Positions 5,156 through 63,477 of a DNA stretch of 64,000 nucleotides are shown here, piece by piece; the first letter of the stretch is position 1, and each line of letters starts with the position of its first letter. The translations under genes were made by a program, and so were the position numbers. Under the pieces are notes generated by a model that saw only the letters and a program-made list of their open reading frames with translations, searched no databases and was not told the DNA's origin. Source of the stretch: Octopus vulgaris (lineage: Eukaryota); NCBI GenBank assembly GCA_951406725.2, contig OX597839.1:3162001-3226000 (forward strand), given 5' to 3'.

Positions 5156-5545
5156 CATCATTGCTCATGTGAACCCCTAGGTCACGCAATGACTCTGACT
5201 CTGGGACTCTAGTGCATTCCGATTTTAGCCTCGTGTTGGGCCGATAAAGGAGTGTCTGAAATTTCATAGCATTGAACTGCATGTAAGTTTTGTTTGTCCA
5301 TTTGTGTATTTCATTCAGGTCTCTCTGCAGTTTTACGATGTCCTTCGGGTTCCTAACTGCCTGTGATACTTTTGTGTCGTCAGCATAACTGGTCAGATTG
5401 GCTGGCTGTACCGCGGAAGGCCTCTCTGAATAGTAGTGGCCCCAGTACCTGTAGGACTCCGCTGAGAATTGGTGTCTCTTCAAAGTGAGCACCATTGGCT
5501 GCAACTGTTTGATCCCTTCAGAAAGTCATGCAACCACTCTCCCTG
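5153..5545 (-). mobile_element. CR1/L2-group LINE reverse transcriptase fragment
   Basis: YADDTK...LQRDL..IHKW...MQFNAMKFQ...SLRDLGVHMSND are the RT motif 5 and thumb motifs. Confidence 0.85.
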
Positions 5546-6358: not shown

Positions 6359-6394
6359 CTTTTACGTTTCGAGCCTACGCTCTTCTACAGAAAG
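6359..6394 (-). ncRNA. Minimal hammerhead motif (CUGUAGA core), copy 1 of a tandem pair
   Basis: Reverse complement: cttt CTGTAGA a GAGC-gtag-GCTC GAA ACGT A aaag. Stem III is the palindrome ACGT. Confidence 0.65.
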
Positions 6395-8024: not shown

Positions 8025-8989
8025 CATATATGTATACACATATATATACATATATATACACACAAATATATATATATACACACACACACATATATATATA
8101 TATACACACATTATATTAATACCACACATATACGTATGTCTTAATATATATACTTATACATACGTATATACATAATTATATACACGCAAATATCCAGTAC
8201 ATTTTATGGATACACACACACACACACATACGTACATACAAATATACATATATATATATATAATATGTACATAAATATGCACATATAATATAGATTAAAG
8301 ACATTTATGAATATATATTCATAAGTATACACGTGTATGTGAGTGTGTGAGCGCGCTTATGTATAGGCGCGCGCGTGTGTGTCTTGTGCATATATATATA
8401 TATATATATATATACATTAACTGTTGAACCAAGCAAAAGTACACCAGTCTAACAATTCCACCATTAGCATCATCAAACATTTTTATATACAAGAGGATTG
8501 TTGTAAATATTAGTATACGAATAATAGAGTCGCTGAATATCAGCTATATATATATATAGGGTATGTATGTATGTATGTATGTATGTATGTATGTATGTAT
8601 GTATGTATGTATGTATGTATGTATGTATGTATGGTGCTACACACCATACTAATCGTATCTGTCAGGCATGAGGAAGAGACAGTAATTCGGCAGGAAGACT
8701 TAAACGACATGCAAAGGTACATGAAGCCCAGTCACAACTACAGCCGGCTGTTGCTGGTAAAGGTTTTAGCTGCCAATTCTGTACAAGACATTGTAGATCT
8801 TTAGCTGGGCTAAAAAGTCACGTTCGATCACAGCACCAATAACAGTTAAGCTTCGTGCAATGGCCATACTCCATAACGAGGGGGCAGTCATAATGTATAT
8901 AAAAACTGATATTGATAGTGATAATAATAATGATTCATTCAATTGATGATATTTAATATCAGTTTAATTCCAACCTTGAATATCTATCA

Positions 8990-12514: not shown

Positions 12515-12552
12515 TCTTTCTGTAGAAGAGCGTAGGCTCGAAACGTAAAAGA
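12515..12552 (+). ncRNA. Minimal hammerhead motif (CUGUAGA core)
   Basis: tcttt CTGTAGA a GAGC-gtag-GCTC GAA ACGT A aaaga. 5-bp stem I. Same element family as 6267-6680, opposite strand. Confidence 0.7.
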
Positions 12553-19764: not shown

Positions 19765-19848
19765 TGGTACGATCGTTTCACGCTACACCATTTTATTACA
19801 CATTGTAAGTATTACAACAGTTTTAAAATGTTGAGCAATCATCAGCCA
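19765..19848 (-). ncRNA. Type-I hammerhead ribozyme, canonical core, long stem II
   Basis: Reverse complement: tgg CTGATGA t TGCT-CAACATTTTA...TAAAATGGTG-t-AGCG t GAA ACGATCGT A cca. Stem III is an 8-nt palindrome. Confidence 0.75.
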
Positions 19849-20308: not shown

Positions 20309-20371
20309 GGATAACTGAAGAGATGGTAGCGTGGATTTCCACCTCAGCATCCGAAACTCTGAGTTTTATCC
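20309..20371 (+). ncRNA. Type-I hammerhead ribozyme, canonical core
   Basis: ggataa CTGAAGA GATG..GTGG-attt-CCAC..CATC c GAA ACTCTGAGT T ttatcc. Perfect 6-bp stem I. Confidence 0.8.
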
Positions 20372-21730: not shown

Positions 21731-21788
21731 ATTCTACTGACGAGGCAAAGCATTCCTAAATGCAAAGTCAGAAATCCGGATCTAGAAT
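21731..21788 (+). ncRNA. Type-I hammerhead ribozyme, canonical core
   Basis: attcta CTGACGA GGC-aaa-GCATT-ccta-AATGC-aaa-GTC a GAA ATCCGGAT C tagaat. Perfect 6-bp stem I, palindromic stem III. Confidence 0.8.
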
Positions 21789-23329: not shown

Positions 23330-23581
23330 AAAGAGAGAGAGTGAGAGTGGTGCAGATAAACACAATTAGGCTTTTCGGTCGTTTGTCCACTCACATATGT
23401 ATAAGCATTTATAAGCATATATACATATACACATAGAGATACGCATATACACATATAGCTAGATATATTCAGAAGATAAACAGATATGTGCAAACATCGA
23501 TGTTTATATGTATGGGAAAATGTATTTACATAGAGTATAAAACTAGAGAATACTAAAGAGAGAAAACATTGTTTCTTTTTA

Positions 23582-23995
23582 ACTGGATAGCAAAACTTCA
23601 CACACCACATCCACCCCCATCAGTTAAAAAATGTGCACGCCCTAACTGTGGTACCTGCCCCTTCCTACTTGAAGGCTCTGAATTTACTTTCAAACACGGA
23701 ACAAAGTTTAAAATCAAAACCAGCTTCTCCTGTTCCTCCGAGAACCTCATCTACGTTCTCACATGCGCCGGTTGCCAACACAGTTAAGCAGAAGAGTAGC
23801 AGTCCATAAAGAACAGATAAATCTCCTACAATACCGTCAAATTCCACTCAGTAGCCACATAGACCCTTGCGCTAGAGATAAAAATCCCAAATTTCACATA
23901 TTCCCTTTCTACCAATGAAAAGACAGACTCTCTACACAAGAAAGAATCAACAAGGAGAATCTTTTTTTTCAAAAATTCCAAACGCGTCTTAATAT
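23582..23995 (+). mobile_element. Penelope-like element GIY-YIG endonuclease remnant (pseudogene)
   Basis: KCARPNCGTCP (CxxxxCxxC linker)...FSCSSENLIYVLTCAGC, then a deletion, then HKEQI..YRQIPLSSHIDPC...FHIFPFY..RINKENLFFQKF..LN. Confidence 0.85.
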
Positions 23996-24499
23996 GCAAA
24001 CTCCACGGTGACCATACTCCTTTTTCTAACATCCTGTCTAACAAAAAAAGTGATATATGCATCCTGTTTGACAAAACATACATCGTTCCAATTAAAGAGC
24101 ATAAAATCCACAGAATTGTCTCCCCTTACTCACAGGAACTGGTTAGCTCCTACCCCATTTCCTGTTTTGAAAACACAATCACCCAACTCTTTCAAACTAA
24201 ACACTACACTTAAACACATGCATCCTAATCCTCCAAAGAAGTTTTCCCAAGGACTATTATTGAACTCTAAAAGCATAAGACACTACAATGTATTGGTATA
24301 CTTATTTATTAATTTTTGTATATATGTATTATTATTTTTTTGAAAAAACATTGTAAATTTATTTTTTCCCCTTCCAAATCTTGAAAATTTGCCTTGCAAT
24401 AAAAGCCGGTTTGATTTATCATTTTTTATTTTTTATGTTTTCATAGACCCATTTTTGTTAAAATTTACTTTCAATTTAGCATTCTGCCTTATAATTTTT

Positions 24500-24561
<62 letters not shown>

Positions 24562-24637: not shown

Positions 24638-24783
24638 TATATAATATTAATTCGAGACAAAACCACTACTTTGCAAAACAAACAAGGAAAGACTTAATCA
24701 ATACATAAAATTTTATGTATTGATTAAGTCTTTCCTTGTTTGTTTTGCAAAGTAGTGGTTTTGTCTCGAATTAATATTATATA
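24638..24783. repeat. Perfect 146-bp palindrome with no spacer
   Basis: Centre AAAA|TTTT at 24710/24711. The arms match exactly. Confidence 0.95.
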
Positions 24784-24857
24784 ATATTTTACTATAAAAT
24801 TGGATTTAATCCTAAATTTGATTTTTTCCCTGTAAATTTGGATTTATTCCCTAATAT

Positions 24858-39230: not shown

Positions 39231-40686
39231 TAATCTAAGTAATTTATTGACTAATTTCACTCACATTATCAAAATTTTGTCTCAGTGCAGTAATATCGTT
39301 ATAATCCAGCAAATTCGGATATATTTTTCTTCAGTACGATTATTGCTTCTGCTTCACCTTCCTACCAACTTTGGTACTTTTACTTCACAACTTCAAAATA
39401 ACTGTTTAACAGATTTTATTCAAATTTCCCAGCATTTAAGCTAACGTAAATTTATCTGTTCATGAACTGGATACCGATTAAAAACCTATAAAAGCTTAGT
39501 AACTTAAACATGTTTGATTATGCCTGTGCCACTCATACTTTTTCCGCTCATCTATTAATTCATCGTGTTCAATTTTTCATTATTTGGTTAATATTATTGC
39601 CATTTTAATCATATCTTCGCAATATATTCATTTATTCCATACTCCCTCTCTCTCTCTCTCTCTCTTCTTCTTCTTCTTCTTCTTCTTCTTCTTCTTCTCT
39701 CTCTCCCTTCTCTCTCTCTCTCTTTCTCTCTCTATCTCTGTCTCTATCCCTCTCTTTCTCCACTATTTCTTTTTAGATTTTCTAAAATTCTTATACATTG
39801 ATTTTTGATATAATTTAGCTATACACTATTTAGTTATCTCTCTCTTAAGTAACTTTAGCGCAGTCTATTCATCTTACGTAATAAAATTATACACATTCGT
39901 ACAGATTAAATTTGATAAAACACATAAATGGCATCCATCTTATCTACTCGTATATATCCTATTCTCAAAACAACGCTACACAATACAATTTAGTCCATCG
40001 TTCCTTTATGATTGAGTCTGCGGCATACTTCTGAGAATTGACGGGGTCAGTTTTAAATTTGGCACTGGTCTCCGTAATAATGAATTATCGCTGCTAGTCT
40101 CTGATTCTGGATTGAGCCAATGGATTTAAAGGCGCTTGAAGATGAAATATACCGTTCAAGTCTTCTATTTATCATTTGTTTTAATCATATATAATTTGTT
40201 TCCCTCTACGGGTCTCGCATGATGATTCCAATTTGGATATCGATCTTTCACTGGTCAATTATACTCCCTTCCATATTGAAATGCTGATTTTTCTGTTTGA
40301 ATGTTCATATGTTGTTAAACATGCATGATCAGCAATGTATCAAATACTGACTGCATGGAGTAGCCTGATGATTTGGGAGACTATTGCATTATAATAAATA
40401 TGCGATGCTACCTCACAATAAAATCATTTAATGAGACATTGTAACAAGACCGTGTATTCAAATCGTCTGCTTCTTTTTATCATTATATTTTATCATAAGA
40501 GATGAAGCCAGAATAGAAGTTCCACTATAATTTGAATATCATGGATTTGCAGATTACCAAAGAGCAATTAGCTTTTTCCTCCATTTTAAACACTACACCA
40601 ATGGAATGAATTGTTTATCTGATAATTTGTGTCGTACTATCTAGGAATCAAGTGTTGTGTACTCGCTGATATACCTCAATTTTTAA

Positions 40687-43384: not shown

Positions 43385-43438
43385 TTACGGACCGATTTCA
43401 GGATTAGTTCATAAGAACCCTCCCTTCGTCAGTGATAA
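43385..43438 (-). ncRNA. Hammerhead motif, canonical core, weak stem I
   Basis: Reverse complement: ttatca CTGACGA AGGGA-gg-GTTC-ttat-GAAC-taa-TCCT GAA ATCGGT C cgtaa. Confidence 0.6.
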
Positions 43439-45612: not shown

Positions 45613-45735
45613 AGACCATAAACCCATGTCTCATCACCACTGATAACGGTCTCCATGAAGACCGGGTCGTGGTTTGCACAGTCCAGCATGTTCTGAGCGG
45701 TTTCCACGTTTTAAAACTTACCCTTCCTGTGTTGT
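45613..45735 (-). mobile_element. Mariner transposase fragment (first catalytic Asp)
   Basis: AQNMLDCANHDPVFMETVISGDETWVYG. Confidence 0.85.
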
Positions 45736-47144: not shown

Positions 47145-47393
47145 TGTATGTATGTATGTATGTATACACACAAGAGGTACGCAATGAAACATGTTTCATA
47201 CCGAGAGCAACCTTTAAATTAAAATTTTTATTCCTTAGATATTTACTCGTCAAGTTTTTAATATTCAGTTATTATTTAAATTTATTATTTGTATTTCTAT
47301 TCATTTGCACATGTTAAGTAAGATTATATTGAAGATATAGAGTATCATGGAAGTATATAAGAGTTAGGGGTAGTGAAAAATGTTGAGGAATCC

Positions 47394-47493
47394 AGACCTG
47401 ACGATTGGGAGTATGTCGACCCGAGTAAGTATTGAAACTAGATACCTCGTATCTAATCAATACCGACGTACTTTCATGAAACGCGTGTAGTCT
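47394..47493 (+). ncRNA. Type-I hammerhead ribozyme, canonical core, extended stem II
   Basis: agac CTGACGA t TGGGAGTATGTCG...CGACGTACTTTCA t GAA ACGCGTGT A gtct. Stem II has 13 bp plus a nested hairpin (gtattga..tagatac-ctc-gtatcta..tcaatac). Confidence 0.85.
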
Positions 47494-47735
47494 TATAAAC
47501 GGAAAATACAGGATTCAGAATAGATATAGCTAGTTAAGATTTAATTTTTAATATTTTATAGAGTGGTCGGGTATAAAAATCTTAGTGTTGACTGAGTTGA
47601 AGGTGGTTCTGTCTCTAAAATTACTTTTATATATATGAATTAAACATTGAGAGATGTTCATTTTAGGACATCTAATTTGAATGTCTTTCTCCTGTGTACT
47701 CGGAACTAATATTACCTAATAATTATAATATATAT

Positions 47736-47844: not shown

Positions 47845-48354
47845 ATAGTGTAATAAATAAAATATATGCATATATACAAACATATATGTACGTACCTACA
47901 TCTACATGTACATATACATGCATATATAAATATATACGTAAGTACAGGACACCACAACTAGACGTAGAACTCAACGAGAAACGAAAATGGAAAAACAAGC
48001 ATGGAACAAACCATTTTTTTACAACAGAAAAACAGAGTACAAGACAAACACGAGGAAAAATCCTTCATCAGCTGTCCCTAGTTCGACTCTAGCGTGTCGA
48101 AACACGCTAGAGTTGAACTAGGGACAGCTGATGAAGGATTTTTCCTCGTGTTTGTCTTGTACTCTGTTTTTCTGTTGTAAAAAAATGGTTTGTTCCATGC
48201 TTGTTTTTCCGTTTTCGTTTCTCGTTGAGTTCTACGTCTAGTTGTGGTGTCCTGTACTTACGTATATATTTATATATGCATGTATATGTACATGTAGATG
48301 TAGGTACGTACATATATGTTTGTATGTATGCACATATTTTATTTATTACACTAT
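47845..48354. repeat. Near-perfect 510-bp palindrome with a 4-nt loop (CGAA)
   Basis: Arms 47845-48097 and 48102-48354, only a few mismatches. Confidence 0.95.
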
Positions 48355-56090: not shown

Positions 56091-56602
56091 ACTGCTCTCA
56101 CGTGACCATCGGCCATCTTTCTTTCTTCTTGTATCTTGTGTTTCTTTCTTTCTCTCCGTTGTAGCTGGAACAAGGAAGACGTGTTCATGTTTGTCACCTG
56201 TCCCTGTTTGATTTACGCACTCGCTACCACAACCTTGTTTAGGCTTAGCATCCCTTCCTGTTTGTTTTCACTGCCCTGTTTGTGTTACCAATTTTGACCC
56301 TCCGCAAAATCCCAAATTTTATTTAATTTGTTTTGCGGGAGCAACTGTTTTATGGAAAGCGTATATTGTTATTAAATGCACGAAATGCGAGACTAAAAAT
56401 ACAGCTAACAACTGATGAAGAGTCGTTCTTTATGTACTTTATTTTGTTTTCTATTTGTGTCTTTCGTCGTTCGAAAGAATAGTCCATGTCCCATGCACTC
56501 GTGCCCCATATTTTTTGTTGTACACGTTTTGTGACGTCCGCTGCCCACATATGCATATATACATATACGTATAGATGTAAGTATGTACATATACGCATAT
56601 AT

Positions 56603-58975: not shown

Positions 58976-59238
58976 TGTTGTGTCTGGGGAGAGTCATTTT
59001 CTTTTTGTGCCTTATAATTTATACTCACCGGCAAAATTTCCACTTTTTTCTTATTTTTATTGTCCCAAAATTTTCATTGCGTCTTGCAAACTTTTCAGTA
59101 GTTTCAAAACTATTGAAAAGGTTGCAAGACGCAACGAAAATTTTAGGTCAATAAAAATAAGAAAATAGTGGAAATTTTACCGGTGAGTGTGTTAAATTAT
59201 AAGGCACAAAAAGAAAATGACTCTCCCCAGACACAACA
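58976..59238. repeat. Fold-back (about 130-bp arms) with a hammerhead motif at the apex
   Basis: The arms meet at about 59104-59106. Confidence 0.9.
59110..59146 (+). ncRNA. Minimal hammerhead with U3-A8 core at the apex of a fold-back
   Basis: cta TTGAAAA g GTTGC-aagac-GCAAC GAA AATT T tag. A mirrored degenerate copy lies at about 59065-59101 (-). Confidence 0.55.
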
Positions 59239-63442: not shown

Positions 63443-63477
63443 GTTTAACGTTTCGAGCGGAGCTCTTCGTCGGAAAC
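63443..63477 (-). ncRNA. Minimal hammerhead motif (CCGACGA, U4C variant)
   Basis: Reverse complement: gttt CCGACGA a GAGC-tcc-GCTC GAA ACGT T aaac. Confidence 0.65.

Follow-up and report, generated by a model that had tools for sequence, protein, structure and literature searches.

Hammerhead ribozymes cleave RNA by acid-base catalysis involving G8 and G12, and their products end in a 2',3'-cyclic phosphate and a 5'-OH. Those associated with Penelope-like elements (PLEs) reportedly have a diminished stem III and cleave as dimers, as Lunse, Weinberg and Breaker are said to have described in 2017.

In the account of Cervera and De la Pena (2014, PMC4209133), metazoan PLE hammerheads sit in pseudo-LTRs, mostly as solo motifs, and resemble the motif analysed here in combining a short helix I, an enlarged helix II and a palindromic helix III; their monomers are silent and their dimers weakly active. 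Their consensus has one unpaired base followed by a G10.1-C11.1 pair, unlike the U-U present at our locus, and U-U is found in 2 of the 56 examples of Fig. S3 of that paper (from Hydra and Drosophila willistoni). The Hydra-clade PLE hammerheads tabulated by Craig et al. (2021, PMC8557442, File S2) share with our motif the type I layout, a consensus core, a short palindromic stem III and a 3–7-bp stem I. The GUA site is common among them, as here, and they lie near the 3' end, in nearly all families within (TA)n. In 14 of the 25 families tabulated there (a count in which two rows are identical), A9 is followed and G12 preceded by a U, and 10 of these 14 continue with U-A, like our motif. Their stem II has 3–7 bp and a 3–10-nt loop and spans at most 26 nt between the boxes, unlike the 73 and 59 nt of the two long-armed motifs described below.

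Two further systems are relevant. The axolotl ribozyme HHR_Amex2 (Cervera and De la Pena 2020, PMC7229834) likewise has a U-U base, a 2-bp helix III and a 4-nt loop, and its monomer is reported there to cleave 22% in 1 h and its dimer better; unlike our motif, it has canonical size, loop 1/loop 2 contacts and 350-bp tandem repeats that give circular RNA. The Selaginella element PLE-X1_sMoe (Craig et al. 2021, File S2, PMC8557442) has a long stem II of 9 bp with a 35-nt loop, in which a nested hairpin is possible by eye, but it is a plant, endonuclease-less element flagged as non-canonical by its authors, has no U-U and is shorter. For Octopus vulgaris itself, the published repeat annotation (PMC13282606) lists Penelope-like elements, and the available portion of its main text mentions neither ribozyme nor hammerhead.

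Here we describe a hammerhead at positions 47394–47493 of a 64,000-nucleotide stretch of Octopus vulgaris contig OX597839.1, referred to below as the window. Our preferred reading, to which we assign a probability of about 0.7, is that it derives from the 3' end (pseudo-LTR) of a PLE or of a non-autonomous derivative, is present as a solitary 5'-truncated copy and would work as a dimer.

Structure of the hammerhead

The motif carries the CUGANGA and GAAA boxes and the A15.1-U16.1 pair of type I hammerheads, together with an NUH triplet (GUA) and an open-ended 4-bp stem I, as that type requires. A first-pass annotation had reported the CUGACGA/GAAA core, the GUA triplet and the 4-bp stem I, and we verified their sequence and coordinates. 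The stem II that it described, with 13 bp, a U-U base and a nested hairpin, is present in all these parts with 27 pairs overall, and stem III can indeed pair with its own second copy at 8 of 8 positions (predicted energy −9.5 kcal/mol). The parts of the motif, and the sequence island that holds it, are as follows.

47394–47493, + strand: type I hammerhead ribozyme motif, whole, intact-looking
47394–47397, + strand: stem I, 5' strand, four Watson-Crick pairs with 47490–47493
47398–47404, + strand: core box C3-A9, CUGACGA, consensus, with C7
47405–47477, + strand: stem II, 73 nt (U10.1-U11.1, 13 bp, bulge, 7 bp, 3x1 loop, 7 bp, 3-nt loop)
U47405 opposite U47477, + strand: U-U mismatch at the base of stem II
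47406–47418 with 47464–47476, + strand: basal helix of stem II, 13 bp, three of them G-U
47419–47428, + strand: 5' bulge of stem II, 10 nt
47429–47435 with 47457–47463, + strand: middle helix of stem II, 7 bp, followed by the 3x1 internal loop
47439–47445 with 47449–47455, + strand: distal helix of stem II, 7 bp, with a 3-nt loop
47478–47481, + strand: core box G12-A15.1, GAAA
47481–47488, + strand: stem III; 2 bp and a 4-nt loop in the monomer, an 8-bp self-complementary duplex in the dimer
47487–47489, + strand: GUA triplet, with a cut predicted from the hammerhead consensus between 47489 and 47490
47490–47493, + strand: stem I, 3' strand
47388–47516, + strand: possible stem I extension, six Watson-Crick pairs (47388–47393 with 47511–47516) and a 17-nt 3' bulge (47494–47510)
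47172–47724, + strand: AT-rich unique island holding the motif, about 550 bp between microsatellites, boundaries approximate

Stem II closes the junction, and its 10.1-11.1 position is U-U rather than the usual R10.1-Y11.1. The motif has no canonical loop 2, and the candidate tertiary contacts (the stem I extension and pairings of the bulge) are post hoc. The extension, which the first-pass annotation had not listed, appears in the predicted fold of 47370–47540 (shuffle P = 0.003 by a strict and 0.045 by a relaxed rule) and has a pair probability of 0.01 within the whole 553-nt element. The claim that this is the best-formed hammerhead of the window is supported. Judged from its sequence, it is an intact-looking type I hammerhead with a palindromic stem III and, apparently, the dimer-dependent design of PLE hammerheads.

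Departure from chance and database searches

Stem II folds at −27.5 kcal/mol, and none of 1000 mononucleotide shuffles folds as well; the 111-nt region around the motif has z = −3.76, equalled by 2 of 200 dinucleotide shuffles. Four motifs of the window fit a strict hammerhead descriptor where 0.05 would be expected by chance (local dinucleotide shuffling gave no motif in 285 of 300 trials, one in 15 and more in none). When one core change is allowed, 10 motifs are found against 0.51 expected (693 shuffles); this relaxed descriptor demands a clean 4-bp stem II and hence omits two of the motifs listed below, at 20.3 and 21.7 kb. In a scan for rods on a U-U base, exactly two long motifs occur in the window, and two or more long ones in 10 of 1299 shuffles. 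All three non-Watson-Crick pairs of the 47.4-kb stem II are G-U on the + strand, and the stem is predicted to fold at −26.7 kcal/mol in the sense against −18.8 in the antisense direction, a strand difference of 8 kcal/mol. The G-U bias and the asymmetry of this predicted fold may be read as signs of RNA-level selection.

Rfam did not recognise the motif, either at gathering score across the window or at E-values up to 10 around the motif; microsatellite noise was the sole return of these scans. The three shorter strict motifs of the window were likewise missed at gathering score, so that the Rfam models do not cover this form; we regard this as a gap in the library and not as a defining failure of the motif. 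The 301 bases around the motif had no match in a phage collection searched in distant mode. A pattern of the two boxes separated by 40–70 nt gave 120 loci in bacterial and archaeal genomes (drawn from 22 of 64 parts), and none of these had more than 5 basal stem II pairs, of which the pattern itself forces 3. A single locus among the 120, whose stem II had 4 bp, satisfied relaxed requirements for stems I and III; it was taken as chance.

That two short boxes happen to flank a DNA hairpin is, to us, scarcely credible. In favour of this reading, neither box is long, the window contains 27 copies of the 5' box where 18.7 are expected, and Rfam is silent; but more than one strict motif was obtained in 0 of 300 shuffles where four are observed, stem II is better than 1000 of 1000 shuffles, the details agree with published PLE hammerheads, and the bacterial matches show nothing comparable at the base of stem II.

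Other hammerheads in the window and the U-U base

The window contains further full-core hammerheads, as well as the remnant of a PLE with a hammerhead of its own.

19765–19848, − strand: second long-armed U-U hammerhead (stem II of 59 nt with 22 predicted pairs), 3-nt terminal loop, perfect palindromic stem III, 3-bp stem I
20309–20371, + strand: full-core type I hammerhead, 6-bp stem I, palindromic stem III, irregular stem II base; resembles Hydra-clade entries
21731–21788, + strand: full-core type I hammerhead, 6-bp stem I, palindromic stem III, irregular stem II base
23455–24008, + strand: decayed PLE endonuclease end, with a C-x4-CxxC linker and a GIY-YIG domain, stops and a frameshift
24376–24417, + strand: decayed U-U hammerhead with a short (4-bp) stem II in the 3' UTR of the PLE remnant; U3-A8 core, A at position 12
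23455–24500, + strand: 5'-truncated Neptune/Nematis-like PLE, with a broken GIY-YIG end and a hammerhead-bearing 3' UTR, ending in (TA)n

As the first-pass annotation had noticed, the motif at 19765–19848 (−) shares the U-U base and the long stem II, and the interiors of the two rods are unrelated in sequence (P = 0.80). It is the weaker of the two: its whole-region z is −1.21, its stem II alone is equalled by 7 of 1000 shuffles, and it lacks strand asymmetry (−14.0 vs −13.3 kcal/mol). Compared by eye, it agrees with several Hydra magnipapillata families listed in PMC8557442 in the 5' strand of stem I, the core box and the opening bases of stem II.

The further proposal, that the U-U base marks a distinct structural subclass, finds no support in that form. 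The same base is present in the 14 of 25 Hydra-clade families mentioned above, which makes it the most frequent state there, as well as in axolotl HHR_Amex2 and in the short-stemmed 24376–24417 motif, and Perreault et al. (2011, PMC3088659) report U10.1-U11.1 as a natural variant and the best-tolerated mismatch. Since the motif at 24376–24417 combines U-U with a 4-bp stem II, the base is separable from stem length. By hand count, 2 of the 3 U-U motifs in the window have a long stem II as against 0 of 7 others (Fisher p ~0.07), an association that rests on two motifs. The U-U base and the dimer-type stem III are thus known already, and on present comparisons it is the length of stem II alone that sets 47394–47493 apart.

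Several other motifs of the window are listed here as observations. The strict motifs at 19765–19848 (−), 20309–20371 and 21731–21788 are clustered within 2 kb, and two of the three stand back to back at a distance of about 460 nt. Minimal PLE-type hammerheads with a short stem II occur at 12515–12552 (+), 6359–6394 (−), 63443–63477 (−) and 59110–59146 (+). The first two have a common sequence, both with U at position 6, which suggests a variant at the level of a family. Position 4 is C in the third, and the fourth has a U3-A8 core. Decayed hammerhead-like remnants, with a broken stem I, a missing GAAA or weak stems, lie at 43390–43432 (−), 45636–45673 (+), 56412–56477 (+) and 49844 (+). At 40365–40423 (+) there is a core box with a U-U base, a 48-nt stem II and an A replacing G12, stems I and III being broken; it is possibly, though uncertainly, a third and decayed long-arm motif, which the U-U scan missed, and it has A12 in common with the 24.4-kb motif. 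Positions 47377–47392, directly upstream of the 47.4-kb ribozyme, match the 19.8-kb motif in antisense at 15 of 16 positions, over its core and the 5' arm of its stem II (P = 0.02, one of 12 comparisons; reached by 0 of 200 real blocks); the match may be chance and was not counted.

The long stem II

The span of 73 nt between the core boxes makes the 47.4-kb arm about three times longer than that of published relatives. In a 2026 paper, 6 bp is called long for stem II and 4–5 bp usual (PMC13725137), and a 2014 hammerhead descriptor (PMC4209133) limits stem II to 7 bp and loop 2 to 10 nt, so that 47394–47493 would be missed by it. A described class of long-arm hammerheads was not found in the literature searched, in which Lunse et al. 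2017 was judged by its title. A near-repeat of 7–8 nt flanks the distal hairpin (47420–47426 and 47463–47470), which suggests that the rod may have grown by local duplication.

Selection might instead have kept the long stem II as a functional module in a lineage of its own, its 10-nt bulge either pairing with flanking RNA, in a switch or pseudoknot, or docking the protein of the element, and in this way standing in for the usual loop-loop contact; we think this quite improbable. Two unrelated U-U rods with a 3-nt terminal loop do occur in 64 kb, possibly with a third, decayed one at 40365. Pseudoknots often substitute for loop contacts in the examples given by Perreault et al. (PMC3088659), and one PLE hammerhead has been shown to need PLE protein (PMC11167929). 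The bulge at 47419–47428 is 92% unpaired, and the island holds three complementary sites of 6–7 nt (at 47243, 47567 and 47697), a number reached in 4 of 10000 dinucleotide shuffles and in 0 of 246 real blocks. This test is post hoc, having been devised after the sequence was seen, and when pairing is scored by duplex energy the best site has P = 0.029 as one of 16 comparisons and is equalled by 6 of 482 real blocks. The complementary sites are moreover mostly paired in the predicted fold of the island, the 19.8-kb rod has no such bulge, and the bulge is similar to the arm on the 3' side of stem II, as would be expected if the arm grew by local duplication. A pairing of 47559–47574 with the 3' arm of stem II was rejected (−13.6 against −20.8 kcal/mol for the native pairing, P = 0.07).

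Folding as monomer and dimer

For the 100-nt motif, the active monomer is predicted to lie 4.9 kcal/mol above the minimum-energy fold, in which core bases 47401–47403 pair with 47484–47486 of stem III. The active dimer is computed at −67.7 kcal/mol, below the −63.2 of two monomers and within 0.5 kcal/mol of the best co-fold (−68.2); the energies of the 19.8-kb motif are similar in pattern. By these computed energies, the locus displays what is expected of a PLE-associated dimeric hammerhead, namely a short self-complementary stem III, a weak monomer and a feasible dimer. With the flanks included, two inactive monomers (−75.2 kcal/mol) outdo a dimer model (−68.9) that omitted the stem I extension. 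In the whole 553-nt element, stem I has a probability of 0.01, and 12 of the 13 pairs of the basal helix have probabilities of at least 0.96.

Folding predicts an inactive monomer and a feasible dimer for 47394–47493, energies that would fit the known rule by which a single copy is off and a partner on a tandem transcript turns it on. In such a scheme, two copies of the parent element, on one tandem transcript or on two transcripts, would pair by way of the palindromic stem III of each and exchange strands of stem I, so that both cores are completed. Each RNA would then be cut 3' of GUA (here after 47489), which would release element RNA of unit length; the cleaved ends would be a 5'-OH and a 2',3'-cyclic phosphate. 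In the off-state of the monomer, the three core bases would be sequestered by stem III. The long stem II may have grown out of loop II; the core would tolerate it, and it would lock the fold around the weak U-U base. As a solitary copy, the 47.4-kb motif is most probably without effect unless another locus supplies a transcribed partner.

PLE hammerheads assayed as single copies gave no cleavage in the experiments cited (PMC4209133; PMC11167929), and a single-copy T7 transcript that stays uncut may for that reason still be a real ribozyme. The Anolis PLE hammerhead needs the protein of its element in order to cleave, and insertion in vitro can take place without the ribozyme (PMC11167929), which makes protein help plausible for 47394–47493 as well.

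Genomic setting and origin

The window is AT-rich (GC of 0.25–0.43 per 2 kb), 12% of it is microsatellite, and neither open reading frames nor Pfam reveal a convincing host gene in it; it reads as non-coding DNA of an invertebrate. Within it, the PLE at 23455–24500 ties hammerheads to a protein-coding remnant. In an exhaustive search, the endonuclease remnant matches 463 proteins at E ≤ 0.001 (best E 1.6e-15), whereas a word-based protein search with it gave no match. Among 12 of the matched proteins, Pfam finds RT and GIY-YIG in 5, GIY-YIG only in 5, RT only in 1 and neither in 1, and all 8 full-length matched proteins have DKG and a C-x(2-5)-CxxC linker, a combination that is Neptune/Nematis-like according to the sections cited from Craig et al. 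2021 (PMC8557442). By these motifs we assign the element as Neptune/Nematis-like. The 24376–24417 hammerhead lies about 370 nt behind the endonuclease remnant. It has one core change, and its descriptor class yields 0.5 chance motifs per window, so that its position behind the endonuclease gene carries much of its weight. That position ties U-U hammerheads to PLEs in this genome and implies that U-U is not confined to the Hydra clade.

This remnant is also the one place in the window where a U-U motif is linked to a PLE frame. All 219 tblastn matches of 150 PLE proteins to the window fall at 23455–24008 and none beside 47394–47493, with queries that were Neptune/Nematis-like and included no Hydra-clade protein. 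Pfam found no RT or GIY-YIG match in 450 of 473 reading-frame fragments (the 23 shortest were left out), a scan insensitive enough to miss the known remnant as well. Two peptides, one YREQ-like at 47199 and the other RNE-like at 47180, are reminiscent of PLE motifs but too short to count. The 47.4-kb motif has the hallmarks of a Hydra-clade hammerhead (either U-U or no extra nucleotide at the base of stem II, and a palindromic stem III of 4 bp), which are not exclusive, because the Neptune-like remnant here also carries U-U. The proteins of that clade are recognised by the motifs RWK, DKT and CxCX5C and by the lack of CCHH. Hydra-1_oBim, the Octopus family tabulated in PMC8557442, has no U-U and a different sequence. 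By eye the motif is absent from the Octopus Naiad 3' ends given there, and the core box together with two U has 0 matches across the whole supplement of that paper, although line breaks could conceal one.

The island at 47172–47724 would be the 5'-truncated end of a retroelement, and solo copies are the usual state of truncated PLEs in the survey of PMC4209133. Neither the island nor its motif has a second copy within the 64-kb window, which leaves the 47.4-kb motif with no cis partner close by. The flanks of the island are TA-containing microsatellites, which are frequent throughout; since one-third of the unmasked bases sit in islands of at most 600 nt, these flanks are weak evidence. We infer that the core tolerates the long arm and would act as a dimer, and also that the motif comes from a PLE, although the 47.4-kb copy is solitary and has no PLE gene beside it.

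The same solitary state bears on a distinctly unlikely alternative, that the motif is the solo unit of a non-autonomous retrozyme, i.e. of a short tandem repeat that is transcribed, cut by a dimeric hammerhead and circularised. The U-U base, 2-bp stem III and 4-nt loop are exactly those of HHR_Amex2 (PMC7229834), solo units are common and retrozymes are proposed, in a 2026 report (10.64898/2026.07.22.740005), to descend from PLE pseudo-LTRs, and the possible bulged extension of stem I is similar to the canonical type I layout. However, the tandem repeats of about 150–400 bp, each bearing a hammerhead, by which non-LTR retrozymes are recognised are absent, with no tandem or dispersed copy in the window, and the island is AT-rich and weakly structured (z = −1.85). 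In retrozyme hammerheads, as portrayed in PMC4209133, stem II also stays at 4 bp and loop 1 contacts loop 2, and the 27-bp stem II here removes the canonical loop 2.

Co-option by the host, with the ribozyme cutting a host transcript, seems highly improbable. The 47.4-kb core is unmutated where many of its neighbours are decayed, but a young insertion accounts equally well for this intactness, the window lacks a recognisable host gene, and the design requires a second copy. A solitary PLE-derived hammerhead is the reading that we retain.

Other features of the window were recorded in passing. The nearest to the island is an unrelated palindrome at 47845–48354 (510 bp, 253-nt arms, 98% identity, 4-nt spacer), with a CUGAUGA box in each arm (48128 + and 48071 −) and a central GAAA upstream of the box. 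A remnant at about 5240–5420 (−) with a YADD motif, which we take to be of LINE-type reverse transcriptase, accounts for one spare CUGANGA box and has no Pfam match. A C2H2 zinc-finger fragment at 8672–8839 (+; Pfam Zn_SUZ12, E 6.7e-7) is probably the end of a retroelement frame, and 24639–24784 is, by eye, a long near-perfect inverted repeat. The box order and spacing of the palindrome are reminiscent, by eye, of the half-core at the 3' end of the Octopus Naiad consensus shown in the literature. A bacterial promoter scan gave a chance-level result and is irrelevant for an animal genome.

Discussion

The sequence of the hammerhead at 47394–47493, its structure potential, its non-randomness and its likeness to published PLE hammerheads are established. 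It is probably a long-arm variant of a known ribozyme, surviving as the relic of a truncated retroelement. As such it adds one form to a very common class, in which the short limits set on stem II lead to undercounting.

A bolder possibility, which we consider unlikely but state for its consequences, is that PLE hammerheads whose loop II has grown into a 20–27-bp rod on a U-U base form a widespread lineage in this genome that has so far gone uncounted. The rod would be functional, its bulge pairing with the 3' end of the element or docking the PLE protein, and would gate cleavage to the transposition complex. If such a lineage exists, descriptors that allow at most 7 bp in stem II and 10 nt in its loop would be blind to its members, and hammerheads may hide in PLE families that have been scored as half-core. 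The PLE hammerhead of PMC11167929 is protein-assisted, and insertion in vitro proceeds without it. If the rod proves to be conserved, a large and removable stem II module would offer a direct handle on how cleavage is gated.
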